Positions 4,721 to 63,557 of a DNA stretch of 64,000 bases are shown piece after piece; position 1 is the first letter of the stretch, and every line of letters starts with the position of its first letter. A program made the position numbers and the translations under genes. This stretch comes from Okamejei kenojei (lineage: Eukaryota), in contig CM069134.1 of the NCBI GenBank assembly GCA_035221665.1, positions 94,860,001 through 94,924,000 on the forward strand, read 5' to 3'. A model generated the notes under the pieces. It saw only the letters and a program-made list of their open reading frames with translations. It was not told the DNA's origin and searched no databases.

Positions 4721-7280
4721 GGTGGGTGTTGTGACAGGCCACCTAACAGTCAGAGAAGTTGGGGATGGTATCAAACAGGAAATTAGAAATGCGTGCGACA
4801 AAGGCAAAACAGTTATAATGGGTGACTTCAATCTACATATAGATTGGGTTAATCAAATTGGCAGGGGTGCTGAGGAAGAGGATTTTTTGGAATGTATGCG
4901 GGATAGTTATCTAAATCAACATGTAGAGGAACCAACGAGAGAGCAGGCTATTTTAGACTGGGTTTTGAGTAATGAGGAAGGGGTAGTTAGCCGTCTTGTT
5001 GTACGTGCCCCCTTGGGCAAGAGTGACCATAATATGATTGAGTTCTTCATTAGGATGGAGAGTGACATTGTTAATTCAGAAACAATGGTTCTGAACTTAA
5101 AGAAAGGTAACTTTGAGGGTATGAGACGTGAATTGCCAAGATTGACTGGCAATTAATTCTAAAAGGGTTGACGGTGGATATACAATGGAAGACATTTAAA
5201 GACTGCAAGGATGAACTACAAAAATTGTTCATCCCAGTTTGGCAAAAGAATAAATCGTGCATCCGTGGATAACAAGGGAAATCAGGGATAGTATCAAAGC
5301 AAAGGATGATGCGTACAAAGTAGCCAGAAAAAGCAGCATACCAGAGGACTGGGAGAAATTCAGAGACCAGCAGAGGAGGACAAAGGGCTTAATTAGGAAA
5401 GGAAAAATAGATTATGAAAGAAAACTGGCAGGGAACATAAAAACTGACTGCAAAAGTTTTTATAGATATGTGAAGAGAAAGAGGTTAGTTAAAACAAATG
5501 TAGGTCCCTTGCAGTCAGAAACAGGTGAGTTGAATGGGGAACAAGGATATGCGGACCAATTGAATAACTACTTTGGTTCCGTCTTCACTAAGGAAGACAT
5601 AAATAATCTGCCGGAAATAGCAGGGGACTGTGGGTCAAAGGAGGAATTGAGTGAAATCCAGGTCAGTCGGGAAGTGGTGTTGGGTAAATTGAATAGATTA
5701 AAGGCCGATAAATCCCAGGGCCAGATAGGCTGCATCCCAGAGTACTTAAGGAAGTAGCTCAGGAAATAGTGGATGCATTAGTGATAATCTTTCAAAACTC
5801 TTTAGATTCTGGAGTAGTTCCTGAGGATTGGCGGGTAGCAAATGTAACCCCTCTTTTTAAGAAGGGAGGGAGAGAGAAAACGGGGAATTACAGACCAGTT
5901 AGTCTAACATCGGTAGTGGGGAAACTGCTAGAGTCAGTTATTAAAGATGGGATAGCAGCACATTTGGAAAGTGGTGAAATCATTGGACAAAGTCAGCATG
6001 GATTCACGAAAGGTAAATCATGTCTGACGAATCTTGTGGAATTTTTCGAGGATGTAACTAGTAGCGTGGATAAGGGAGAACCAGTGGATGTGGTATATCT
6101 GGACTTCCAGAAGGCTTTCGACAAGGTCCCACATAAGAGATTAGTATACAAACTTAAAGCATACGGTATTAGGGTTCAGTATTGATGTGGATAGAGAACT
6201 GGCTGGCAAACAGGAAGCAAAGAGTAGGAGTAAACGGGTCCTTTTCACAATGGCAGGCAGTGACTAGTGGGGTACCGCAGGCTCAGTGCTGGGACCCCAG
6301 CTATTTACAATATATATTAATGATCTGGATGAGGGAATTGAAGGCAATATCTCCAAGTTTGCGGATGACACTAAGCTGGGGGCAGTGTTTAGCTGTGAGG
6401 AGGATGCTAGGAGACTGCAAGGTGACTTGGATAGGCTGGGTGAGTGGCAAATGTTTGGCAGATGCAGTATAATGTGGATAAATGTGAGGTTATCCACTTT
6501 GGTGGCAAAAACAGGAAAGCAGACTATTATTTAAATGGTGGCCGATTAGGAAAAGGGGAGATGCAGCGAGACCTGGGTGTCATGGTACACCAGTCATTGA
6601 AAGTAGGCATGCAGGTGCAGCAGGCAGTGAAAAAAGCGAATGGTATGTTAGCTTTCATAGCAAAAGGATTTGAGTACAGGAGCAGGGAGGTTCTACTTCA
6701 GTTGTACAGGGTCTTGGTGAGACCACACTTGGAGTATTGCGTACAGTTTTGGTCTCCAAATCTGAGGAAGGACATTATTGCCATAGAGGGAGTGCAGAGA
6801 AGGTTCACCAGACTGATTCCTGGGATGTCAGGACTGTCTTATGAAGAAAGACTGGATAGACTCGGTTTATACTCTCTGGAATTTAGGAGATTGAGAGGGG
6901 ATCTTATAGAAACTTACAAAATTCTTAAGGGTTGGACAGGCTAGATGCAGGAAGATTGTTCCCGATGTTGGGGAAGTCCAGGACAAGGGGTCACAGCTTA
7001 AGGATAAGGGGGAAATCCTTTAAGACCGAGATGAGAAAGACTTTTTTCACACAGAGAGTGGTGAGTCTCTGGAACTCTCTGCCACAGAGGGTAGTTGAGG
7101 CCAGTTCATTGGCTATATTTAAGAGTGAGTTGGATGTGGCCCTTGTGGCTAAGGGGATCAGAGGGTATGGAGAGAAGGCAGTACGGGATACTGAGTTGGA
7201 TGATCAGCCATGATCATATTGAATGGCGGTGCAGGCTCGAAGGGCTGAATGGCCTACTCCTGCACCTAATTTCTATGTTT
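4721..7280 (+). mobile_element. CR1-clade LINE, ORF2 (partial APE endonuclease and RT), 5'-truncated, young
   Basis: Motifs [41 protein letters not shown] and RPHLEYC across consecutive frameshifted ORFs, ending in a ttctatgt tail. Confidence 0.95.
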
Positions 7281-23113: not shown

Positions 23114-24679
23114 CAGCTAGATAGTTGCAGGGTCAAAAGCCGTCCAACAGAGCAGTAAAGAGAGCGAGTTCTGGCTTGCTTGTCCCTTTTATACCCGAGT
23201 TTCTCCCTTGAAACCTCCCAGGTGGTCCTCTGGACAAAAGGGTCTTTCGATGATTCCCAGTTTCGATCTGGCATGAACAATAGGCTTCCAAGGATAATGG
23301 GTTTGCTGATGACACAATACCTCAGCCTGATCGTTATCCCATCACCTGGATGGGCTCCCATTGTCCCGATGGATGGGCCATTTACGATGATGATTGTCTT
23401 GCTGCTGGGCTGTTTACCCCCGTCTACTGAGGCTCGGTTCCTTCCTTTGTCTTTCCAAGATAATCTTGTTATCTCCATCCCGGCCTTTCCTGGTCACACC
23501 ATTCGCATAGTCATGTAATGCCCAGGCCCACAGACAGGTTTTAAACTGGTTCTTCCTTTGTGGATTGGAGGTTATTCCTTTGCAGCCAGCAAGTCCGTTT
23601 TAAAAATGTCCATGTCCTTATCCCAGAGTTCTTCCATAATTTTGGAGGATTTGCCCCAATAACTTACACCATTTAAAAATAGCAAGGGAACTAGTTGGTG
23701 TGGTAGACTATATATGGTTCACATACTTAGCTCAGTTCCAGGATTTGTTGCCCATATATTATAACCACAAAGTTGTTCATTTACATACGATATATTCCTT
23801 TCCATGTTTTGCCTTTATTGGATATTTATTCATACAGTAGTAAGGAAAACTAGATTATAAGCAGATCAGAAGCAATTGGAAGAGTTGCAAAGATAAGGAA
23901 TGGGAAGTGAGGTGGGAGAGCTTCAAGGAAATGTAGATATCTTAAAGATGAAAGGTAATATAACAGCACAGAGAATGGAAAGTAGGGTCTACAGGTTTAC
24001 CTCGGATTATCCAAGACGCCACAAATTTGAAATTCGTTTAGAAACTTGAAAATGGCCACCAGGAGCAAAAGTATGGAGGCATATTTTTTAAAGTATTTTA
24101 CAGTTTCCTCAAATATGTTTATAAAGTATTAAGTTATTAGAGATGGGAGGGAATAGAGTATAACTGTATTGGGCAGGTGGAGGGAAAAGCTCCATTATTT
24201 TGGTTTTTGTTTGCTATAGCAGACTATAGCTGCAGCATACTCATTTTGGGGAGTGCATATTTAGAGGGATGGTCAATGGTACTTTATTGTCATGTTTACC
24301 AATGTACCTTGGGGTGTCAGGTGGTAGATCTCTGCAGGATACCCATTCTCTACTAGCCATTGTATTTGTGGCAAGTCAAATTAAGTTTATGGACAATGCT
24401 TGTCTCTCCCACTCATCAAACTTCAGAATATTTGTGGTTTTGATGATGGCAATGCCATTTAGGGTGTTTGGGTGATGAATAAAATTCTCATTACTGCAGC
24501 TAATCAATATCGACCATTCTGAACGATAAACATTCCATAACACTACAGCAGGTGCTGGAGGAACTTAGCGACTCAAGCAACATCTGTGGAGGGAATTGAC
24601 AGGGGATTTTTCAGGTCAGGAACTGTCTTCAGGCATAATACATCAGTGCAAAGTTGATATCATTTGGACCTTCAGTTTC

Positions 24680-25165: not shown

Positions 25166-27289
25166 GGTCTCAATATCTAAGGCTTTGCAAACGGAACTAA
25201 ACACAGTCATCATCCATCTGGATCTTACCATGGAGAATCAATCTTTAATGAGCCAGTTGAAGATGGCTGGGTCTTGGACTAAAATTATTCAATATTTCAG
25301 CAACAGTCAGCTGCGTTCACCCAGCCAGTGAATAGCTTTACCTCTTGATTCCAAATGCCAATTTTGCTTAAGATCCTTGATACCACACTCATTCAAATAC
25401 TTTCTTGATGTCAAAGGCAGTTTCTCTGACCTCAATGCGGAAAATCAACAACTCGTTTGTGTGAGGCTATAATGAGGACTGGAGAGACTGTCAGAACCCA
25501 ACTGCAGAGTGAACAGATTATTAGTGAGGAAATCCACCAAATGTCATTGTGCATGAAATGTATTATTACTTCACTGATTCTCATGAGTGGGTGTAATTGG
25601 TGATAATTGAAGCTTTTTGAGGATAGGGTGTACTGTAACACAATTCCACTTTGTCAGATAGTATTGAATGTTGCAGCTATACTGGAACAGTTTAGTTAGG
25701 TGCAGAGATAGTTATGCAGTGCAGATCTTCAGCAATATATCATTATGACAAATTGTATGGTAAATTAGTTCAAACAAGGGTTAAAGGGAAACCAATTACA
25801 ACCCAGTAAAGGTTCCGGTGGCTTCTTTTACTTTAAGCGTGGAACATGTACCAATTATGGTGCTTCCATTTCCATTGTTGACGGATATCTATCACCATTG
25901 GAATAAGCTGCGAGCTGGGAATTCTCTTCAAGGCATGTAAATGTCTTTGACTTTGGTTGATAAAAATAATATCCAGGTAATCCCAGTATGCTCATTCTCT
26001 TGCCACCTTGTTATAAAACCTGCTGCTGCTCCTTTGGAGACGGAATTGAAGGCTGGCGTTAGAGAATTACCAAACACCCACTGCATGCTACTTATAAACA
26101 CAGCTTTATTTGTGCAGCAATATGCAAAAAGACAGACACTTTATGTGGTACATTTATCAGAAGCAGCAAGTTTGATGAAACAACAATATTTAGACATTTT
26201 GGTTTAAGCATTTTTTCCAGCCGATTTATCAAATATATAAGACCGTGAATGACAGGAATCCTATTCTGAAACACAGCCATTAGACTGCTGGGTAGAAGCA
26301 ATTAGCTAAGCTGTATTTTCATTGAATTGCAGTGATACCAAGATAACAGCTAAAGTATTTTCTCCTCTAACTGAGATTGCACTTGCTTTGCAGAAACATG
26401 GAAGAGAATTCCCTATTGATCTGAAGGCACATTTCCATTTTAAACCCAACTCAGCAGTGTTTTAGCATTAAAGATGCATTGGTGGCTTTGTATCTTTGAA
26501 AATCTATTACAAAATACAAAGTGCTGGAGAAATTCAGAGGGTTAGGATGCATCTGTAGAGGGAATAGATAGACAACGTTTCGGGTCAGGACCCTATTTTA
26601 GATTCAAGAATCCAACATCCTTATGTCTCTATTTGAAAATCTATAGTTTAATTTAAATTTGTAAGGAATTCCAATTATACATATCTTGACACAAATGATT
26701 ATAAAGATTGCACAAGGTAACTCATGAGCCAACTATTATCACCTGCTCTATTCTTTTAAATGAAGTTATGCCAAACTCTTTCAAAGCTGCAATTCCATTG
26801 CAAAAATGTAACTAATTCATTTGATGCCTTTGAGAACAAAGCCCTATTGTTTAATCTAAAGATGTTTATAAACGTGACACGGTAACAGTATACGATAAAA
26901 GTACAGGTACTCCACCAATTTTCCAGCACCCTTGGTTTCAGAGCCTTTCCGGATTTTCCGTTGTGCCGGACCAACAGAAGTCACATAATGTTCTCCCTCT
27001 CTCTTTTTTTTCTCTGCTCTCGGCCGTTCCCCCAGCTTCAGAAACTCGCCACGAAACTAATGGCGGAGAACGTGACAGCGGTACAGAATGCACATTGAAA
27101 GGAGCAAGAGTGACAAGGGTTTTTGCAGGATAGATTTGTAATCCTTTATCCTGTCACGAGAAAACCAAGGAAAGAGAGATTGGAGATCTCCAGCTCCTGA
27201 AAATAATTAACCTCAGCCCTTTTAGTTTGTGTCTTATTTAACGTTTAATTGTTTTTCCTGCGACCACCATTCTAAAAGCTCTCCGCATA

Positions 27290-27393
27290 TGTTTAATAGG
27301 GTATAAGGTAAAAGAAGCAAAAAGGATCAACGTAGAGATTGAGAGACAAGCAGGATGCGCGCAGAGAGCTCAAACTGCTGCTACTTGGTGAGT
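27290..27393 (+). pseudogene. Frameshifted exon 1 fragment of a Gq-class G-alpha gene (GNAQ/GNA11-like) with its splice donor
   Basis: 27308-27349 reads VKEAKRINVEIERQ. In the shifted frame 27342-27387 reads RDKQDARRELKLLLL(G), followed by G|GTGAGT. This matches the GNAQ/GNA11 N-terminus and its phase-1 exon-1 boundary. No intact start codon was found. Confidence 0.88.
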
Positions 27394-27580
27394 TGGAGAT
27401 GAAGCAAAGAGAGTGAAGTTGATGCACTTTTGAGATACTGAGAATTGCTGTGATGCCTATTTGGAAATATTGTTTTTATTTCTAATTTTATTACCCATAA
27501 AGGGTATATGTGGCGGTTTGGATTACTTAGTCTTTGATAATTAAAATGTCTTGCCTGCAGTCATCATAACAGACAATTTG

Positions 27581-27858
27581 CTTTAGACTTTGGACAGGGC
27601 CACCGAGTCCGATCTGTGATCACCCGCACACTAACATTATTCTACACACAACGGCCAAATTTCAATTTTTACCAAAGCCTGTAAACCTACAACCTGTATG
27701 TCTTTGGAATGTGGGAGGAAACCGGAGAACTCGGCGAAAACCCACGCGGTCACAGGGAGAACATACAAACTCCGTACAGACAGCACCCGTAGTCAGGGCA
27801 GAACCCGGTCACTGGCGCTGTGAGGCAGCAACTCTAACGCTACACCAATGTGCTGCCC
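27581..27858 (-). mobile_element. tRNA-derived SINE (HE1-like) nested in the TIR element
   Basis: Reverse complement of the gggcagcac...gttgctgcctcacagcgccagtgacccgggttc head, and a body shared with the copy at 63558. Confidence 0.85.
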
Positions 27859-29994
27859 TGTGATATCTTCCTGTACAGCCCTTATCGGAATCTTTTCAAT
27901 AAACTCAATTTGTATTGGCAAAGCACTGTAAACGCATTGGGCAATTTTAGCAATCAGGACATAGTCCTTCGCGATACTCATCTCAGTAAACCCAGTAGTT
28001 ACTTTTCATATAAATGCAAGTGCTCTTTCATAATTTTGTCCAGATTAAAGGAAGTGCTGGACCATCAGTTGCTGGAAAATCGGTGGTATACCTGTATTAA
28101 GTTATGATTGTGTAGTTAGTATATTTTTTATCTTCAATTTTTGACAACAATATCCACATTTTCAGCCATTCTTTAACTTGAATGCCTGCTGTGAAATATT
28201 AGTATAAAATTAATTGATGTTGGCATTTCTTCTGCAGTCAACTTTTGATCAACATTCTCGCTTGGTTTGCACTTTGAATAGAAAGCCACAGTCCCCACTT
28301 CATGTCATCTTGAGTAATTAATTACTTACTTGCTGAAGAATCTCTAGGGAAAAGAAGAAAATGCAATCAGTCATACAAAATGGACAGGTACCCCAGGTCA
28401 AATATTGACCTATGCACACAGTTGAGCATTAATAAAAATCAAATGCAAATTGTAATTAGATTGCTTTAAAAAGGATGTAAAACAGATAATAAATCAAATA
28501 ATCCCTCTTATAGCACACTGTAATTTTTGCCACATTATGTGCATCAGTATTAATATTTCCATTTTGTGCCTTATCTAGCATTAAAGTCACATGTCTCTGT
28601 GGTCAAGTGAACCCACGGAAAGCAATGTTTTGAGGTACCTGCTATAAGTAGAGCAGGTCCCTGAAGCAAATAATAGGCCAGGAGATGCTGCTAATACCCT
28701 TTTTGTCTTTTCGTCAACCCACCATAGGCTGTGCGGGTGCATTGAATACAGTGGTGAATTTCATCTTAATGGTCTGCCTTCACCAAGAGGTGGCTTCTAA
28801 AATATGCTTAAAGGTTCACATTTTCCAGAGTCTTGTTGTGAACCTTTATTGAGAGCACAGTGTGATGCAGCAGTGGTAGCTTGATAGAAGGCCTTTGTGG
28901 AGAAATGTGTATAATCACAAGTATCATTTGCAACTGGCTTACTGAGGTTTGGTTGGCCATGGCTATAAAATGTAGTCACAACAGATTGAACAGTTTCCCA
29001 TGAGCTTAGAATTTTGTTGAGGGTGGGATGCAACATTGTGGAAGGACACTTTCCTCAATGACATAGTCTTTCTAAACTCCACTGAAATTGCTTCTGTTAA
29101 TAGCACACAGGTTAGTTTCATGGTTTGCATACCATCATGGAGGAAGCTGAAACTGAATCTTTGTAGGCAGCCAAATGCAGGAGTGTATTCCACATTTCCT
29201 ACTGATTGATGGAGTCAAAAGCTTTGGCAAGTCAAAACAGACCACATATGATGGATGGTGCTGGTCTGTACATTTGTCTTTGTGTTTGTGTGGTAAACAT
29301 CATGTCCATTATGTTTCCAGATAGACAGAGTCCACATTGTGATTTGGAGAGCAGTGCATCAGCCACCGGGAGAAGAGCCAGGTAATACAGTCCCTAGAAG
29401 GAGCTTTCCCAGCAGGAGTCTTAACTATCATTCCCACAGTTGGACTCCTGGAGATCCCATCCACACCCTCCTCTTCCTAGACAATGAGATTGTAGATTTG
29501 CAACTGAAATCCTTCACTACTGATGTTTAGGAATTCAACATGCAGGGTATCTGCCCCAAGGCTGTTGTTATCTTCTAGTTGGAATATGGTATTTCAACTT
29601 ATTGCTGGTTAAATATGATGGCAATTCTGCCCAAATACGTTGCTGAGAAAGGAAGTCAAGAACTAGTCGCAGGAGGTCTTTGAAATGTTCCTTCCAGAGG
29701 GCTTAGATTGCCTCTATGCCTTGAGTGTGCTGCATCCTTGGATCTCATTGAGGTGGGGTCTTGAGTGTTTGGGCCATCGATGGTTATTTTTGTATCCCCA
29801 ACAGAACCCATGCTTGTCATGGCAGTCACTTGGTGTGGCCCATCGTAGCCGACGATAGCATGGTTGTACAGTGTCATGTCTTGTGGGTTTGAATGTGGCT
29901 CACGGGTCCGATGCACGAGCCACACACACAGGAGCAGCTTGGGCACATGAAGGCCACAGTGGGAGGATTTAGGGTTGCAGCCTCTCTGACACTA

Positions 29995-35515: not shown

Positions 35516-37813
35516 CAAGTTCTTTGTCAGAAAGAAAGTTAACTAGTTTTCTGTAGTAGAGAAGGTGGGAGAGGGATAAGTAGAATAAAAGGAATGTTTC
35601 TTCGAGGGTGAAACCGAATGAATTGATGTAGCAGATAGAATCAGATTGTACTTATTTGTCTGTGTAAGTGATAGGACTGTGGGTTTTGCTCAGCAGGTCA
35701 AGCTAAACAAATGGAATGAGAAAAATTGACTCAAATATAAATGGTTGACTGGCAGAATGTGTGAGGAATCCAAACGCTCAGGGTCATTCCTTGCAGTGGA
35801 AGGAGTTCTGCCACTTAAATTTCCATCCCATTCCAACCTTTGTATTTGTGGTCTCCTTACACAAGGTTCTGTGCAAACCTGCGGAACAACGCCTCATCTT
35901 CTGTCAGCCTCTGGACTCAATATTGAATTCTCCAACTTCAGGTAACTCGGTCAATCTTTCTTTCTGTTTGTATCTGACCAGACCATTTATGGCTGTCATC
36001 CACCTTGATCTGGCTTAGTTTTTTTATTTTCCATTACTGCAGCCTGATCTGCTGGGCATGTCCCACAACCGTACCATTAACAACACATAACACAAAGAGG
36101 GAAGCATAACATATGTCATATTAACCGATCGGGTCTCATTCTATCAATCAAAATTATTTTTCCATCCATCTCAATTCAACTCCTTATCTGCAACTGAAAT
36201 CGAACTTGTCCCCTCTTTCCCAGTTCTGACAAAGTATCTCAGGACTGAAATATTAAATCTCTTTGTCTCTCCACAGAAGCTGCCTGGCCTGCTGAGGGTT
36301 TCTAGGATTTTTGTTTTATATTTCATTTACATAATTTGCAGTATTTTGACCTGATTCATCACAAATTGGTTGCTCTTTAATGGCATATTCTGCAAGTGTT
36401 TAGATGGAGTTCACAAAGTCATGTTAGGATGGCTTCTAGTTCTGTACAAAGCAAAATACTCAGCCGGTGCCAGACATTAAAAGCAGATTCTCATTCTCTT
36501 AATGGACCAAAGTACTGTATGTAACCAAAGCTGTTTCCATCAACTCTTCAGCAGAGTCCTCTGCAGCAGAATTTGGTTGCAATCTAGACTTCTGATATTC
36601 TGTTATCCTCACCCCATGTTTCCCCCTTTCTCTAGCTGCTACATACTTGCGTGCATTCTCTCACCCATGTGGATTTTACCTCCAGTTAAACCCTTAAGAT
36701 GTGCACAGTATCAGTATATGTGTCAGTGTCTGTGGGTGTGAAATAAAATGACACCTTGTCTTCATGGTGTCCCCCCATTGCCTGATTAGACTGAACTTCT
36801 TTAAGTGCCCAAAATTAAGAAGAAAGGAAATTAAGAGTTGATATTTTATGATGTGAAAAAAATATAATCTCTGATTCTGATTAAGAACATGAGAAATTGG
36901 CGAAAATAACTGAAGCATGTCACACAGTTCCCAAACCCACTTCCTTATTTAACAAGATCAAGGCAGATCTACGTCAAATCCACTTTTCCACCAGATCCCC
37001 TTTTTCCTTAATACTCCTGAACCCCAAAAATGTATTAAACTCCACCTTGAACAAACACAATAATTGATCATCCTCACCCTTCTGGGTGGTCAGAGACTTC
37101 CAAAAATTCCCAATTCTTGACGTGAAAAAATTTGCTCTGGAACAGTCCTGAATTCAGACCCCTGATCTAGCCCCAGGCCAGGTCTCTCCAGCCAGAGGAA
37201 ATTTCAACGTTGTCAATCCCCTCATAATCTTTTATGCTCCAATTAGATCATTGCTAATTTCTTCAAATACCAGAGAATATGGTTGACTTTTCTCAATCTT
37301 TCCTCACAGGACAACCCGCATCTCAGATACTCTCCGAAAAGATATCTGCTTGTTTGGCACTCTATTTTTCCAACCCAAACATTCCTTCCTCCATCACCAC
37401 GTGGCTGCAAAATGTTTCATTTACAAAGTGCGCAGCAGTCATTTCCCTGGATTACTTGCATAGGATCTCCCATACACATAGTTTCTACCAACAAAGGGAA
37501 CAAAAGAAGTCGGTGAATAGCAACACCACTATGCACAGGACACTTTCCGAGTCACAGATTTTTTAATTGTATAAATATAATCTCTGGCCCTTTCTCATCA
37601 TTGGTCCAAAATCCTAGAACTCTTTCCGCATTGCAGCCTTTCAAGGTGGTCACACTTCCCCATCTTCTCAAGAACCATTAAGAATGATCAATCATTGTTT
37701 GCCTTGTTGGCTTTGCCAAAATTCCATAAACGTGAAGATAGAAAGCACTTGCATGTTTACATTCTGCTGTTCATATACGAGGCTACCTAAATCTCTCTGA
37801 TGTGTAGCATTTA

Positions 37814-39413
37814 CAGTGCCCTCCATAATGTTTGGGACAAAGACTCATCATTTATTTATTTGCCTCTGTACTCCACAATTTGAGATTTGTGATAGAAAAG
37901 AATTACGTGGTTAAAGTGCACATTGTCAGATTTTAATGAGGGCCATTTTTATACGTTTTGGTTTCACCATGTAGAAATTACAGCAGTGTTTATACATAGT
38001 TCCCCCCATTTCAAGGGCACCATAATGTTTGGCACGCATGGCTTCACAAGTTTATGTAATTGCTCAGGTGTGTTTAAATTCCGCCTTAATATAGGTATAA
38101 GAGAGCTCTCAGCACCTGGTCTTTCCTCCAGTCTTTCCATCACCTTTGGAAACATTTTTGTTGTTTATCAACATGATGGCCAAAGGTATTCCAATGAAAG
38201 TTAAAGAAACAAGAATAAAACTGTTAAGACATCAACAAAACCTTAGGTTTACCAAAATCAACTGATTGGAACATCATTAAGAAGATAAAGAGCACCGATG
38301 AGTTTGCTAATCACAAAGGGACTGGCAGGCCAAAGAAGTCCTCCATAGCTGATGATTGAAGAATTCTCTCTATAAAAAGAAAAATCCCAAAACACCTGTC
38401 CGACAGATCAGAAACACTCTTCAGGAGTCAGGTGTGGATTTCTCAATGACCACTGTCTGCAAAAGACTTGCTGAAAAAAAATAAAGAGGCTACACTGCAA
38501 GATGCAAACCACTGGTTAGCTGCAAAAATAGGATGGCCAGGCTACAGTTTGCCAAGTACTTAAAAGAGCAACCACAGTTCCGGAAAAATATTTTGTGGAC
38601 AGATGAGATGAAGATTAACTTATGTCAGAGTGATGGCAAGAGCAAAGTATGGAGGAGAGAAGGAACTGCCCAAGATCCAAAGCATATCACCTTATCTGTG
38701 AAACACGGTGGCGGGGATGTTATGGCCTGGGCATGTATGGCTGCTGAAGGTACTGGCTCACTTACTTCATTGATGACACAACTGCTGATGATAGTAGCAT
38801 AATGAATTCTGAAGTGTATAGACGCATCCGATCTGCTCAAGTTCAAACAAATGCCTCAAAACTCATTGGCCGGCAGTTCATTCTACAGCAAGACATTGAT
38901 CCCAAACATACTGCTAAAGCAACAAGGGACTTTTTCAAAACAAAAAAATGGTAAATCACCCAATCTCCCAATCTGAACCCAATTGAGCATGCTTCTTATA
39001 TGCCGAAGAGAAAACTGAAGGGGACTACCCCCCAAAACAAGCATAAGCTAAAGATGGCTGCAATACAGGCCTGGCAGAGCATCACCAGAGAAGACACTCA
39101 GTAACTGGTAGTGTCCAGACTTCTGTCATTGCATGCAAAGGATATGCAACAAAATACTAAACACGACTACGTTCATTTTCATGACATTACTGTGTCCCAA
39201 ACATTATGGTGCCATGAAATCGGGGGCCTTTGTATAAACACTGCTGTAATTTCTACATGGTGAAAGCAAAATGTATAAAAATGGCCTTTATTAAAATCTG
39301 ACAATGTGCACTTCAACCACATGTGATTTTTTCTATTACAAATCACAATTTGTGGAGTGCAGAGGCAAATAAATAAATGATGGGTCTTTGTCTCAAACAT
39401 TATGGAGGCACTG
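37814..39413 (+). mobile_element. Full-length decayed Tc1 transposon of the IR/DR type
   Basis: TA|CAGTG...CACTG|TA ends. TIRs of about 220 bp, each with two ccataatgtttgg direct repeats. Broken transposase with ILWTDEMKINL and VKHGGGDVMAWACM. Confidence 0.95.
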
Positions 39414-39583
39414 TAAAACTCGCTCTCTATTTAAAAGATTTCTATTCTCTAGTTTTCTTTTCTCAGTTAAATGAATAACTTTACAATTGCTCACTTTATA
39501 CTTTTTTCCACATTCTTGCCTGCTCACTTAAATCATCTTTTGCAACCTCTTTGCAAGCTCCTTACACCTCACAATCCGAATTA

Positions 39584-39803
39584 TTAAATAAATAGCATAG
39601 CATGTTTGTTGCAAAACATTTTTCCTAATGGTGCCAACTTATTACCAGATCCGATATGCTTGAGGATTTCATTGATCAAATCTTGTGTTCTCCGCATCTC
39701 ACTGGTCAGTGTCAAAGTTGTACTTTCCTGCTGCTGATAAATATCTGAAACCTTCAACTGTAGCTTTTCAATCTCGTCGTGTAGTTCCATACTTGAAATG
39801 CTT
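39584..39803 (-). CDS. TRP-like cation channel, exon E (coiled coil); reads to the stop at 39584 or splices at 39646
   Basis: Strong acceptor tttttcttttcttttcag with a phase-2 start. Encodes SISSMELHDEIEKLQLKVSDIYQQQESTTLTLTSEMRRTQDLINEILKHIGS, with a heptad-like pattern. An internal donor TG|GTAATA follows position 39646. Confidence 0.78.
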
Positions 39804-42712: not shown

Positions 42713-42837
42713 TCTTCATCTTGATTTTCGATATGGCCTCTGCCAAAAAATATTTTGCCTCGTCTGGGTCCAGGACTCTGTTCAGACATTTCCCATTCTT
42801 CCTTTTGTAATAAACTTGCAAGATTATCAATATCTTC
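42713..42837 (-). CDS. TRP-like cation channel, exon D (C-terminal; absent from the ORF track)
   Basis: Acceptor tttctctctccag, then an open frame EDIDNLASLLQKEEWEMSEQSPGPRRGKIFFGRGHIENQDE(E), then donor GA|GTAGGT. Phase 0 in and phase 2 out exactly bridge exons C and E. Confidence 0.8.
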
Positions 42838-49919: not shown

Positions 49920-52900
49920 TAGAATTGAATCTTCGACTTCCTCATTCACAGACCACAGTCTGTCCTTGGTGAAAATGTGTCAGCATCGATAACAATCAGC
50001 ACAGGCGCACCTCAAGGCTGCGTGCACAGCCCCCTGCTGTACTCACTCTATACTCGTGAATGCGTAGCCGGTCATAGTGCAAACTCCATCATAAAGTTCG
50101 CTGATGACACCACTGTTGTGGGAATTATCAGTGATGGAGATGAGTCAGAGTATAGAAGTGAGATCAACCGTTTGACCAAATGGTGCCAGCACAATAACCT
50201 GGCTCTCAACTCCAGCAAAACCAAGGAATTGATTGTGGACTTTGGAAGGGGTAGGATGGGGACCCATAGTCCCATTTATATCAATGGGTCGATGGTGGAG
50301 AGGGTCAAGAGCTTCAAATTCCTGGGCGTGCATATCTCTGAAGTTCTCTGATCCGAGCACATCAGCGCCTCTACTTCCTGAGAAGATTATGGTATGTCAA
50401 GGAGGACTCTCTCAAACTTCTACAGGTGCACAGTAGAGAGCATGCTGACCGGTTGCATCGTGGCTTGGTTCGGCAACTTGAGCGCCCAGGAGTGGAAAAG
50501 ACTGCAAAAAGTCGTAAACACTGCCCAGTCCATCATCGGCTCTAACTTCCCTACCATCGAGGGGATCTATCGCAGTCACTGCTGAAAAAGGCTGCCAGCA
50601 TCATCAAGGATCCACACCATCCTGGTCACTCACTCATCTCAAGGCCGGCCTTAACCGATTGGACCGATTGCCCCCGATTGGGCCCCGTGCCTAAGGGGGG
50701 CCCCGCACTAATGTTCCGTATTTCGTACGGAAATACGAATTTGCTTTGTTAAATAAAGATTTTTTTTAAAAACATTCGCCATCCGGATTTTTGTTTTAAA
50801 CAAACATGGATAACAACCGCTGCATGGCCATCAGACACAAATGATTTGTTAACTACTACTGTTAGCACTTGTTAACAGCCAGTAGTTAACAAGTAGTTAT
50901 ACAATGTGTCAACGTATTAATTACGCCGCGTTCCTTTGAATAAAATTCACGCGGCGTCATTAATACTTGTTCAAAACACAATTACATTTACTGAGGAATG
51001 TAGATCGATGCATTGATGACACATTGAGAATTTCTTAAAACTCACCATCATGACTGAGGGCTCTGGACCGCGAGAAGGGTCTTCTTCTTGGTGTGTAGGA
51101 TAGTCATTCACCTACCGACCCACGTTGTGTTTCTCTGTTCTTTGCTCTCTCCCTCCCTCTCTCTCTCTCTCTCTCTCACGCTCTCTCTCTCCCGCTCCCC
51201 ATCTTGTCTCTCTCTAGCTCACTCACTCTCTCTCACCCTGTCGCCTCAGCATTCCTGAAATCATTGACGTTTTGCGGTAGACAAAAATGCTGGAGAAACT
51301 CAGCGGGTGTTTTTTGTTTGGCTCTGAAGTTGAAGGTGGCTCAGCGGGACGGGCATGGGCTCTGGGGAGAGGGTTGCGTTTCTAGTCGAGACCCTTCTTC
51401 AGACAATCACAAGTACTCTCACCCAAGAGAGTTCAGTTCGGTCTGAAGAAGGGTCTTCTCTCCAGAGTCGCTGCGCTGCCTGTCCTGCTGAGTTACTCCA
51501 GCTTTATGTCTATCTTCAATTTCAGAGAAATAAAATTTCTCACGGGGGGCTTATAGCGTCTATCCCCCCCCCCTTTCCTTCCCATCCGCCTCACGGACCT
51601 TAGCGTACCCCTAGTTCCTAAAACCCATTTCCATCACTGTTCATGTTGCACTTATAATGCAGAGACCGGGCCTTAAGTGATTCTGTGAAACAAAAAGATA
51701 AACAGCTGGTTTCAGTCCAACAGCTCTTGAAGAACAAGCACTTCAGCCTCTTTGCCCTGTGACCAGCTGTTTCAAGTTTTGTACTGCTGTTGGACTGAAA
51801 CCAGCTCTTTATCTTTTTGTTTCACCCCCTGTCCGTCCACATTCATTTCCTTCCTCCCCACCTTCCTCCCACGGTGCCTGCTGCTTTGGCGGCAGGCACA
51901 CCATCATGTTTATATTGCCAGTTAACCACTGATTTATTTTCAAGTGGTCAGTGCAAAGTCTGCCTTCTTAAAAACTGGTATCGGTGCCAAAAGTGACTTG
52001 CTCCGTGAAAATGGGCATTTGTAAAATAAATCCTCCGAGTATCCTCTGAGCTACATGTTACTGTATTGTTCAATATTCTTGCTAATTGTCGTATTAGCAT
52101 TTCACTATTGCGTGTGCTTCAGCATGGGCCATCCATTCGTTAGATCGCAGCGGAACATAGTATTAAATCGCAAGTGACTGCAGATGCTGCAGATCTTAAG
52201 CAAAAAAAACAACCATTTAGTGAAGCCACCTAACAAAGGGTTGCTCTTTGGAGGTGAATAGTCACTTCCTGACTAACTGCTGACTATTTTTAACTTGGCG
52301 CAGAGTGCAATGGTTACCCGTTTTCTATTGCATAAATGAAGAGTCGAGTCAAGAATGTATAATTGTCATGTGTACCCACAACAGAACAATGAAATTCTTA
52401 TTCGCAGCAGCATAACAGGCGTGTAAACACAATACTCATAGATTGTATGAGAACAAATGAGAAACAAATAAATTCAATAACTTAACCCTAATACTAATGC
52501 AAAAAAGCTCAGGGCGCCCCATCAAATATTATCAATCGCTTGCTAATCGCATGACTGCGTCCAACTGCTGTCTGGTTAGTTGATCGTATTGCTATATATG
52601 AACTGTTTTGGGAGAGAAAAATGCTCACGGCAGACCAAACGTGTTAAACAGAAATTGGTCAGATACTCAGCTTTTTCACAGTGAGAAATCATGTGAAATA
52701 ATCACTGAATTTTATTTTAAATGAATGTACCTGCATGTTATACTGTTTAGTTAGGAGATACAGCCAGATAGTCCACTGAGTTTGCTCTGACCAGTGATTT
52801 TTGTTTTCCGATTTGTCAATTATTTTGTGCCTGATTATTTGGCGGCCAATCAATCGCTGTCTCTAAAGGGGTTGCGTCCAATTACCAACCAGCTTGCCTT

Positions 52901-54231: not shown

Positions 54232-54433
54232 CTTTATCTGAATGGTGACTTTTTTCAGATCATCTTCTTGATCAATTGTAATATCATCATCGAAGAATAT
54301 CTCTAATGGTGCACATGATGTCTGTATAAACTCTTGAAATGCATTAATTTTCTTCTTATTGAGATGGTCTTCAACATACAGTACAATACTAGCCTGTTGC
54401 ATGGCTGCATTAGCATTTGCGTTGTCATACACT
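54232..54433 (-). CDS. TRP-like cation channel, exon C (post-S6 helix, proximal C-terminus)
   Basis: Encodes VYDNANANAAMQQASIVLYVEDHLNKKKINAFQEFIQTSCAPLEIFFDDDITIDQEDDLKKVTIQIK. Acceptor ttcttatttcag, donor AG|GTAATA. The AG+A junction restores the Arg in SDTFQRVYD. Confidence 0.9.
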
Positions 54434-59346: not shown

Positions 59347-59390
59347 TACCCTGTAAATTAACAAGAAATGTCAGAATATTTGTTATATAC

Positions 59391-59589
59391 CTTTGGAACG
59401 TGTCTGAAAGCAATGCGATGAGAAGATTGATACACAGAATGCTCGACACCCCAAGAAATGTTCCACAGAGCAAATATGCCATTACTGGATCTATGATATA
59501 CATCTCATCAAATCCATAATCATCAACCAGTGTTATCCGAAATACAGTAAAAAGCATCTGGGGTATAGTTGCCATATTTGGTACAAGGC
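59391..59589 (-). CDS. TRP-like cation channel, exon B (pore helix, filter, S6)
   Basis: Encodes LVPNMATIPQMLFTVFRITLVDDYGFDEMYIIDPVMAYLLCGTFLGVSSILCINLLIALLSDTFQ(R). NLLIALLSDTF is a TRP-type S6 signature. Acceptor ttttcttgcatacag, donor AG|GTATAT; phase 1 in, phase 2 out. Confidence 0.93.
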
Positions 59590-60456: not shown

Positions 60457-60575
60457 CTCCAAAGATTATCCAAAACGCACATGCGAAAGGAATGTAAAAC
60501 TCTCCATAAAGAAAAAGGAATTTGAGGAGATCCACAATTATTTTTCCGAGCATCACTATAAAAGGTCCTAGGGCT
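60457..60575 (-). CDS. TRP-like cation channel, exon A (S4-S5 linker and S5)
   Basis: Encodes (R)ALGPFIVMLGKIIVDLLKFLFLYGEFYIPFACAFWIIFG(G). Acceptor ttttctggcgcag and donor G|GTAAGT. The phase-1 end matches the next exon. Confidence 0.92.
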
Positions 60576-63557
60576 CTGCGCCAGAAAAGTAATAATGTTA
60601 CAGGATACATAAGTATAAATATGTCATCGTTTTGTAGGCCACAAACTACAAATAACGTTGAAGAAGAGTAAAGAGATCCAATTTATATATATAATAAACA
60701 CACACACCATTCAAAGTAGCAGCACTGGTGACCAGAGCGTAAGGAAATATTTTTACTAAGGATTGAACAGCGGAGTAACATTAAATACATTCATTTTATT
60801 TGGAACTCACTCATGCCAGAACTGTCCTAGTATCCAAATATAAGTAGGAATATAAAGGCACTGAGAATGGAAGGAACCAAGGGACTGACAAGGATTACAT
60901 GAAACCTGAAAGGATATAATGCACGGAGAAAGCGGTTCTGTTCTGAATTCATTCAATAGAGATTGATAGTCTTTTGCACATCAAGGGAATCAAAGGGTAT
61001 GGGGATAATGCAGAAACAATTATGTTGATCCATAATCAGACATGAACCGGATGAATAATGGAGCAGATGAACTTTATATTTTTTGCCCCAGAATCTGAGA
61101 GAAGCTTTCGAGAAAGTTGTTTCAAAATGAGGGAAAGAGAGGAAAAGTTACAAATATTAATGTTACACAATTCTTTGTACCCATTGCACAACATTTGTCT
61201 AAATTTTGCTCCATTTCATAAAAAATACTTAAATGACTTGGGTGCTGGTTCACCTGTGATGAAAGCGGCCTTGTTCACCTTGCTTTCTTCCTCATGCCCT
61301 TTCTTCTGACTCAGCCCACCTAGTATTGTGTACATTGGTATAATATCTTTAAATGCCATATTTTAAAATAAATTTTGATTGCATAGAAGCAAATGTGAAC
61401 GTGTGCCTACATGTGCAGCTGACAGTTGCATAGCAACCTTAGTGCTTGACGGTTCAAAGATTTGCTTGGAAAATATTTTGCATTAACAAATGTGCTTCAT
61501 GCATTTTGATTGACTTGTCAGCAATGACCAGTGCTATTTTGTGTCATTATTGACAAGTACAGTGAACTGGCACCTCTAAAAAGTTAAAAACAATTTTTTT
61601 ACATTTTTAAAAATAACATTTAGCTGCGGCTTGATACTTGGCTAAGATTTTAATAAGATAAATGGATGCAATAGAAACCATGGTGAAAATTCCCCACATT
61701 ACCTTTTGCATCTTGGAATGAGTGTTGCAAAGTGAGGGGAAGGGAGGAAAAGTCACAGATTTTGGTGTTACGTCTTTCAAATGAAAATAAGTAACAAGGG
61801 AATTCCCTACCTGATCGCTCGTACATGTTTCATGACTCGTAACCAAAGGAATATGGTTGTTACTGCGCAAAGTCGAATATGGGTTGTATGAATAGTATCA
61901 CTAGACAATGACAGATCAGCTGCATAAGTTCCAATCAAAGCAAAGAGCAACAGATAGACCAACCAATCAAACAAATTCCTGTGAAAAACAGATAACAGTC
62001 ATGTCAGTGATGTAAATCATTGTAGATGAACTATAGTCATATTTTGTTTAGATTTAAATTTAAGTTTTGCCAAGCGTCAACTGTGTTTGATTACCAAACT
62101 TGCTGCAGTTTTACAGGCCCATTAATGTAATAACAGAACAATAAATATACAATAATCAATAATACAGTGGTGGATTTGCAGCCTTATAGTGCTAGAGACC
62201 CGAGTTTGATCCCAACTACAGCTGCTGTCTTACAGAGTTTGTACGGTCTCCTTGTGACAGTGCGGGACCTTATCAAAGGCTTTCTGAAAGTCTAGATTCA
62301 AATAATAGTGTCTCAACATCTGAATCATTGGGGCAGATTGTATCCTTAACACCAGCACTTATATAGGGTAGATAGGAGACACACAGGTTGATGAGACCAT
62401 TCTGTGAGTGCTGCCCACTGCCTGCACTAACACTGCCCCTGTGCCACATGGAGCCATGCTGTAGTGCAGGAGACTGGGCTTCCATTGGAAGTCTTCCAAA
62501 GTGGCTCCTGATACAAAGCATACCAACAGATGGGCACCCAATGATTTAGGGCAATGGAAGATCTGGTCACTTCTAATAGCATGAATTGGAGCACTTACCC
62601 AAGTTGGCACAAAAGTTAGGGGTCGTGCATTCAGGTGTTTATGAATCTTTAACAATGTGATCACTTGTAATTAATTATTTCAATCAATTGTCTGAGCATG
62701 TGGAATCTCATTCTTTCCGAATTTAGTGCTGGAGATTTTTAAGAGCATTTAAACTGTTTTAATATAACACCTTTATTGCTCTCATAATCCATTTCCCTTT
62801 CCACCCCATTACTTCACTGAGTAAATGATCTCAATCCAACATATTTCCTGGTTGTCTCAGTGAGGATTCTGGATTCAGAAGAGCTAGTCTGTTGTCTTTT
62901 CCACTCAGGGAAGCCATGTAAAGTGAACTATACTAGATTAGATCAAATCTGTTTTAAATCCTGCACCACTCAACAGCAACTGTTTGTCATAGTAACCAGA
63001 AGGCCCTGTTTCTCCTCCACCAACCTCAAACTATCCGTTCTGAGGAAACGTGCTCGAAACAATTCTAGGTACTAGGTACATCCTTCGCAAATGCCAAGGT
63101 CAATAGGTACAATATGTTCTTGCAATTGGACATTCAAAAACCTTCAATAACAATAAATGCACCTAATAATGCTACAGGAGCAGCATCAACATCATCCCAG
63201 GAATATATTTAAAAAAATAATAGCCACCTTTGCCATTTTCTGGTTACTTTTTCACAATTACAACAGGAGTGGGCCCTTACTTTCAGCCCACAAATAAATA
63301 GCAACTGAAGACAATATTTAATGACAAACTCATGCATATTGTACAACTAGAAGAAAACTTTGGTCGATATCCTTACCAAAAATCATTGAAATAATGGGGA
63401 TGCAAGTCATCTAGTGCACTCAGTTGCTTCTTAAGATATGACTCCTCCTGCCAATAGAGTTTAGTTTAGTTTATTATTGCCACGTGTACCGAGTACAGAA
63501 AAACATTTTTTGTTGCATGCTGTATCAATAAACAGTTCCATCCCATTCTAGAATTTA

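Follow-up and report, generated by a model that had tools for sequence, protein, structure and literature searches.

A Tigger-type transposon carrying DNA of the gnaq locus in at least five copies in the skate Okamejei kenojei

The element at positions 26904 to 28094 of the stretch analysed here consists of both ends of a Tigger-type transposon and, between them, DNA from the 5' part of gnaq, a signalling gene. The window, i.e. the whole stretch of 64,000 nucleotides, is C4:94.86-94.92 Mb of the 2.76-Gb assembly (labelled G000) of the skate Okamejei kenojei; C numbers are chromosomes and L numbers extracted loci. Besides the copy on C4, loaded copies lie on C11, C5, C28 and C2. The element is a multicopy Pack-Tigger, new for cartilaginous fishes within the scope of an open-literature search, and represents a process that is itself known and is rare in animals. 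We hold with good confidence the reading as a whole, in which the copies would go back to one event, the filling of an excision gap with the gnaq CpG island as template, would have been spread in trans by the transposase of the family, and would be without function now.

The two arms of the terminal inverted repeat (TIR), at 26904-26928 and 28070-28094, are complementary at 22 of 25 positions and have TA outside either arm. These arms were part of the original prediction, which described a Tigger/pogo-like element with a captured Gq-alpha exon 1, and they are reproduced here, with no TA-flanked inverted pair of this quality within 3 kb in five shuffled windows. The interior between the 88-bp left and the 79-bp right transposon end is 1,025 bp long and contains the presumed 5' untranslated region (UTR) of gnaq, a remnant of its first coding exon, the predicted splice donor at the exon end (27388-27393) and part of intron 1 (Table 1). 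The presumed 5' UTR part (26992..27305) differs from the parent gene in 52 of 287 aligned columns. The copy as a whole differs from the parent in 17% of aligned columns and has lost about 37% of the parental interval. The exon is of Gq type, as predicted, and comes from gnaq rather than gna11, and it is not whole, since about 210 bp of parental sequence, with the ATG and codons 1-14, have been lost and what is left is frameshifted. The intron-like DNA that had been noted next to it matches gnaq intron 1 and is interrupted by a later minus-strand insertion (27585-27857) of a tRNA-type short interspersed element (SINE), which we take to be HE1-like. HE1 is described from zebrafish and elasmobranchs (PMC2911107). 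No further Gq exon is found in the window by tblastn with the four parent exons, among which only exon 1 gives a match (E 2.6e-5, the others E>=0.18), and this agrees with the original prediction. The right end in the window is the 5' end of the transposon, so the cargo is antisense to the former direction of the transposase.

The parent of the cargo lies on C3, where the non-repeat interior matches a single intact locus in a DNA search of the genome. At this locus an ATG opens a 46-codon exon that ends in the identical donor, and more G-alpha exons follow from 117.548 Mb on. By comparison of protein sequences the gene is gnaq and not gna11: the best match of exon 1 in PDB is Gq (70.6 bits, with G11 at 68.3), and a later exon is also best with Gq (102-103 vs 99.6). 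A second Gq-family gene stands in tandem behind it, presumably in the gnaq-gna14 gene order. The similarity of a Gq paralogue on C28 is confined to the coding exon. The captured interval (L078:4940-6158) is 1,219 bp long. It starts about 520 bp ahead of the ATG, with the left breakpoint inside a CT-rich tract, runs through the exon and takes in about 560 bp of intron 1. The observed/expected ratio of CpG is 0.69 upstream of this interval, 0.75 inside it and 0.14 in the next 1.2 kb, which places the cargo in a CpG island. The homology spans the presumed 5' UTR, exon 1 and the first part of intron 1 and stops at the transposon ends, and the flanks of the parent match those of none of the copies.

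Since the homology ends at the transposon ends, the element is not a segmental duplication, and since the exon-intron junction and intron 1 are kept, it is not a processed pseudogene, against which the original prediction had also argued. That a duplicate or processed pseudogene of gnaq came to lie between two chance fragments of miniature inverted-repeat transposable elements (MITEs) is hardly credible. The family is abundant, with 1130 and 1280 candidates for its two ends in a first look (40 scored each), but a second complete copy on C11 has the same ends and junctions and the right junction is the same in every copy. The two TIRs also belong to one element type, as both are carried by a whole autonomous copy as well as by the cargo copy on C11.

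The copies were searched with the non-repeat interior, a query with the whole element being dominated by SINE matches. All five leave the parent sequence at 6150-6158 and pass into an identical transposon end. Their flanks are unrelated, with mutual matches only in short patches of common repeats away from the junctions. The right TIR and its TA are kept in four of the five (C4, C11, C28, C2), the tip being gone from the C5 copy, and both TIRs with TA on either side are present in C4 and C11. The C11 copy measures 2,615 bp including later insertions and has the same left junction as C4. The deletion that removed the ATG is common to these two and has a 3-base word shared between its ends. Only C4 has lost 14 bp inside the exon and parent 5614-5846, and only C11 has lost 5581-5758, which includes the splice donor. 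The C28 copy is without parent 5218-6046, and the C5 and C2 copies begin at 5645 and 6073, respectively. The number five is a lower bound because each further search missed at least one known copy, and a sixth was not found in further DNA searches or in a pattern search with 0 control hits. The common right junction together with the unrelated flanks argues for one capture that was followed by transposition; neither the amplification nor the non-coding state of the exon was foreseen in the original prediction. The C5 copy is itself interrupted by a 4.9-kb insertion (L079:3163-8099), only 19% of which matches repeats at other loci examined.

The carrier is a Tigger-type element of the pogo superfamily, with a putative clade placement taken from the best matches of broken relics. 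Among the 23 loci with a match to HTH_Tnp_Tc5, a single one has a family end, which precedes a decayed transposase by 500 bp. The domain is recognised in a transposase relic with E 9.5e-9, and relics on C7 and C10 match DDE_1; a scan for family ends around the 30 top-scoring DDE_1 loci, and over a wider range at 20 loci, found none. The C7 copy is a whole autonomous element of 2.2 kb, with both ends and with transposase remnants across most of the protein, and two relics on C10 have both family ends as well. The relic transposases are 30-48% identical to unnamed pogo-type and JRK/TIGD2-like proteins, and in both readable relics a spacing of 32 residues (DD32D) separates the final two catalytic positions. 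The TIR is 25-27 bp long, with TA on both sides in 12 of the 16 paired family members listed, and a JRK-like gene has the top score among the nine intact pogo-type genes of the genome. In the account of Gao et al. 2020 (PMC7386202), as far as it is drawn on here, Tigger has a DD29-36D spacing, the pogo superfamily has a TA duplication and TIRs of <40 bp, and JRK is derived from Tigger. The carrier resembles Tigger in its TA duplication, short TIR, HTH_Tnp_Tc5 and DDE_1 domains, DD32D spacing and JRK-like nearest intact gene, and differs in that all copies found here are decayed. The Tigger/pogo-like label of the original prediction is therefore borne out by the transposase.

The intact JRK-like gene is intronless, encodes 580 amino acids (L144:850-2592, on C14) and is 95% identical to a little skate protein, the next matches being at most 58%. 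The part of Gao et al. 2020 (PMC7386202) used here lists JRK in cartilaginous fish only as a pseudogene. Three intact pogo-derived genes are clustered at C1:187.53-187.97 Mb. In the window a lone TIR-like end at 23992-24016 has 6 mismatches in 25 to the TIR of the element, and no partner was found for it.

Both ends of the loaded element appear to have been donated by the autonomous element, to which the inner junction sequences and a T six bases from the tip point. This T is present in 4/4 cargo copies and in four of five autonomous ends (one unreadable), and in 0/24 members of MITE subfamily A, 7/26 of B and 0/5 of C. The same T had been considered as proof of one origin (p ~0.001 vs 7/51), a use that was dropped; it marks the type of donor only, because it is the autonomous element's own state. 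With an autonomous donor about 2.0 of 2.2 kb (~92%) would have been replaced, and at least 64% if the donor was a 470-bp member of subfamily C. In the survey of Tan et al. 2021 (PMC8277862), as far as it is cited here, large gaps with terminal breakpoints are what is expected after excision, and transposition-independent cases have a median gap of 4.6%. Capture by repair of an excision gap is the route that we favour, at somewhat better than an even chance. A Tigger element would have excised and left a break, and a sister copy would have served the broken ends as template for 88 and 79 bp before they switched to the open gnaq island. The loaded unit would have been moved on, by cut-and-paste, by the family transposase acting in trans. 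The original prediction of a Pack-TIR-like capture at the DNA level is supported, in that parent homology is confined to the space between the transposon ends; gap filling, which it gave as an example, is a likely route.

Fork switching would give the same product from another trigger, and it is possible, though rather unlikely, that it was the route. Several copies, all of them off the parent chromosome, and a GC-rich cargo make up the pattern of the multicopy cases known from Tan et al. 2021 (PMC8277862), and a few bases at the right junction are unassigned. However, neither a family end nor a family interior occurs in C3:117.423-117.512 Mb, which extends from 45 kb upstream to 44 kb downstream of exon 1, and the transposase-relic matches on C3 are all more than 60 Mb from gnaq. 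The fly case spans 600 kb, which is beyond the scanned range, and the donor may since have excised. In the Pack-CACTA model of Catoni et al., two family copies around gnaq exon 1 would have lost their inner ends and moved jointly. The left junction is like that of MITE subfamily B and the right one like that of subfamily A, as in a hybrid, but no copy contains remnants of inner TIRs, and the model needs two near-complete deletions on an allele whose promoter, that of a conserved gene, had taken up two insertions. A B/A hybrid is also not required, because precisely this pairing of ends is present in the autonomous element and in subfamily C, and so neighbouring insertions appear improbable. 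The cargo could also have been copied in RNA-templated repair from unspliced nascent gnaq RNA, as its left edge falls in a pyrimidine tract that may be a site of transcription initiation, and it would make up the initial 1.2 kb of the presumed transcript. There is no poly(A) and no splice, and a DNA template in open chromatin accounts for the same interval, which makes an RNA template very unlikely.

The distances of the loaded copies are star-like, with 14.4-19.0% substitutions between parent and copy and 13.4-19.5% between copies. These values are close to the spread of the family itself (20.1% in MITE subfamily B and 22.1% in A, in best-match samples, and 20-26% among four autonomous relics), suggesting that capture and spread took place at close to the same time, within its active period. 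The C4 copy has kept 9 of 30 aligned parental CpGs, and 14 are now TG or CA. Sequence runs of four other organisms contain part of the stretch. In organism B one contig leads from the flank into the TIR, so this is the same insertion site; in organism D the flank and the element are on separate contigs. In the part of the element to the left of the SINE, the cargo differs at 13/681 positions and the flank at 12/648 in organism B (1.9 vs 1.9%; Fisher p = 1.0), and at 24/679 and 10/279 in organism D (3.5 vs 3.6%; Fisher p = 1.0). Since the cargo diverges as fast as the flank, the copy is likely to be inert, and going by its sequence the element is likely functionless today and decaying. The exon differences by codon position (0/4/7 in C4, 2/2/3 in C11) are too few to use and have the parent's own selection mixed in. 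That the copy has been kept as a regulatory element, an exon trap or an antisense source against gnaq is very improbable, although its splice donor is intact and it is present in at least two other organisms. Its divergence equals that of the flank, its CpGs have decayed, it has no ATG, the C11 copy is without the donor, and the nearest gene found is on the opposite strand, with its last found exon ~11.5 kb off.

Several observations weigh against parts of the favoured account. No left end occurs within ~15 kb of the C28 copy or ~20 kb of the C5 copy, and the C2 copy has a faint remnant (E 0.003), so that the transposition of these three is argued from the right end. A 2-bp TA duplication cannot distinguish insertions by sequence. 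The microhomology at the junctions is weak, with ~1 nt on the left and, at a distance of a few bases from the right junction, a 6-nt word in common, and terminal breakpoints could also reflect selection for ends that are still able to move. The neutrality test covers 680 bp in two organisms and would miss weak constraint. An empty TA site was not seen in the organisms compared, and B and D carry the loaded element.

According to Tan et al. 2021 (PMC8277862), a Pack-TIR has 100-5000 bp of internal sequence between both termini of one TIR element. The gnaq element has its interior between both ends, keeps intron sequence, and derives from a unique locus that is not a transposable element and is not flanked by Tigger family ends. 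The common right junction in 5/5 copies, the two complete copies and the unrelated flanks make it multicopy. It falls outside the filter of >=90% identity and 80-120% length of that survey, which is a filter for the detection of young cases only. This survey, the only one of animals that was found, gives 370 Pack-TIRs in 100 animals, 281 of them unique and, among these, four multicopy (three from frog, one from alligator), with a median cargo of 224 bp and none in the elephant shark, the sole shark-like genome surveyed. One of the frog cases, Pack-hAT-N8_XT, has three copies of 291 bp of CAPSL 5' UTR in Xenopus tropicalis, and Drosophila Ssk-FB4 is a further multicopy case for comparison. The gnaq element shares with the animal multicopy cases host DNA between two ends, a parent locus without the element, copies that lie on chromosomes other than that of the parent, and a 5', GC-rich cargo. 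It differs in its Tigger/pogo carrier, its identified autonomous partner, its five copies, its skate lineage, its length of 1.2 kb with an exon-intron junction, and its age, being 14-19% from the parent and with deletions. Unlike Ssk-FB4, it is without coding capacity.

The primate Pack-Tigger and Pack-MER elements (PMC8277862) also have Tigger-type carriers, and GNAQ was once a donor in the human lineage. A 192-bp piece of a human GNAQ exon lies in MER5A (hAT) inside a TAX1BP1 intron (PMC8277862, Supplementary Data 4). This is an independent event, and the shared donor gene is probably a coincidence. As described there, the primate elements are single-copy, were mostly captured in cis and have small internal gaps in elements that were already dead, whereas in the gnaq element nearly the whole interior was replaced and the unit appears to have moved afterwards. 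Plant Pack-MULE and Pack-TYPE elements (PMC8903248; PMC6379663) are likewise non-autonomous TIR elements that move intron-containing gene fragments, and Pack-Mariner elements with TA duplications are reported from rice and maize in the same sources. The gnaq element differs from these in its single donor gene, in showing no sign of the neighbouring-insertion route and in its vertebrate host. In the open literature (subscription journals, Repbase and Dfam being outside its scope) no report was found of gnaq capture by a transposon or of captured gene fragments in a skate genome.

The family also includes three MITE subfamilies. Subfamilies C (~470 bp) and B (~325 bp; 561 candidates) both derive from the autonomous element by internal deletion. 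Subfamily A (~420 bp; 772 first-look candidates, e.g. L292-L321) has family ends of 84 and 82 bp around an interior of 250 bp with a GC content of 54-64% and an observed/expected CpG ratio of 0.64-0.92. This interior has no match in seven relic loci. In the search for its source all of the 30 best loci have a family end, with no end-free match among the loci examined, and no Rfam match was obtained for three loci. It is possible, as a tentative reading that is less likely than not, that the Tigger family repeatedly replaced its interior by foreign GC-rich DNA at nearly the same points, and that one product became the mass repeat of subfamily A.

Other features of the window are separate from the gnaq element, and two of them are TA-flanked inverted-repeat structures of a quality like that of the TIR pair at 26904-28094. 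A Tc1-like element of 1.6 kb (37813-39418) has TIRs of ~215 bp that are 92-93% complementary, a broken transposase and a match to HTH_Tnp_Tc3_2. A TA-flanked hairpin of 113 bp at 51699-51811 has 25-bp arms (23/25) and is possibly a very small MITE. Six candidate exons on the minus strand may belong to a TRP/PKD-like channel gene, with weak matches to PKD_channel/Ion_trans in Pfam and to PDB entries only, and the last of them ends near 39,580.

Table 1. Positions of the parts of the loaded element, of autonomous relics and of neighbouring candidate exons (window coordinates unless a locus or chromosome is named)
Feature	Position	Strand	Remarks
TA target-site duplication, left	26902..26903		
Tigger 3' end, 88 bp, with 25-bp TIR 26904-26928	26904..26991	-	profile match 1-85, E 8e-26; sequence beyond it resembles the 3' end in the C7 and C10 autonomous relics
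Captured gnaq DNA upstream of the ATG (presumed 5' UTR)	26992..27305	+	parent L078:4940-5288 = C3 ~117,467,939-117,468,287
gnaq coding exon 1 remnant, codons 15-46	27306..27387	+	ATG and codons 1-14 deleted; internal 14-bp deletion, frame shifted
Splice donor GTGAGT 27388-27393 and gnaq intron 1	27388..27584	+	27426-27584 = parent 5847-6002; ~230 bp deleted behind the donor
tRNA-type SINE, inserted later	27585..27857	-	C4 copy only; parent continuous across the site
gnaq intron 1, continuation	27858..28017	+	parent 6002-6158, 82% identity, E 2e-37
Tigger 5' end (upstream of transposase), 79 bp, with TIR 28070-28094	28016..28094	-	84.6% to C23 transposase relic; profile match E 2e-23
TA target-site duplication, right	28095..28096		
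C7 autonomous relic	L286:3898-6100 = C7 ~89,751,400-89,753,600		
Other decayed autonomous copies	L289, L290, L249, L287, L288		
Candidate channel-gene exons	~61811-61978, 60457-60575, 59378-59554, 54232-54433, 42713-42837, 39580-39803	-	

The gnaq element is very likely a fossil, and no new gene arose from it; its value is as a record of mechanism. The origin of multicopy Pack-TIRs has so far been argued from a single fly case. Here the parent, the five copies, the autonomous partner and the three MITE subfamilies fix the extent to which the transposon was replaced and favour an origin linked to transposition. Old cases that fall under a filter of 90% identity exist and can be traced. If the interior of subfamily A is a captured host CpG island, skates would have a Pack-TIR with hundreds of copies, which exceeds every animal case surveyed by two orders, and the gnaq element would be the traceable member of a vertebrate Pack-TYPE family like those of plants. 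The gnaq element shows that CpG-island DNA from next to the promoter of a conserved signalling gene has been carried to other places in a vertebrate genome.

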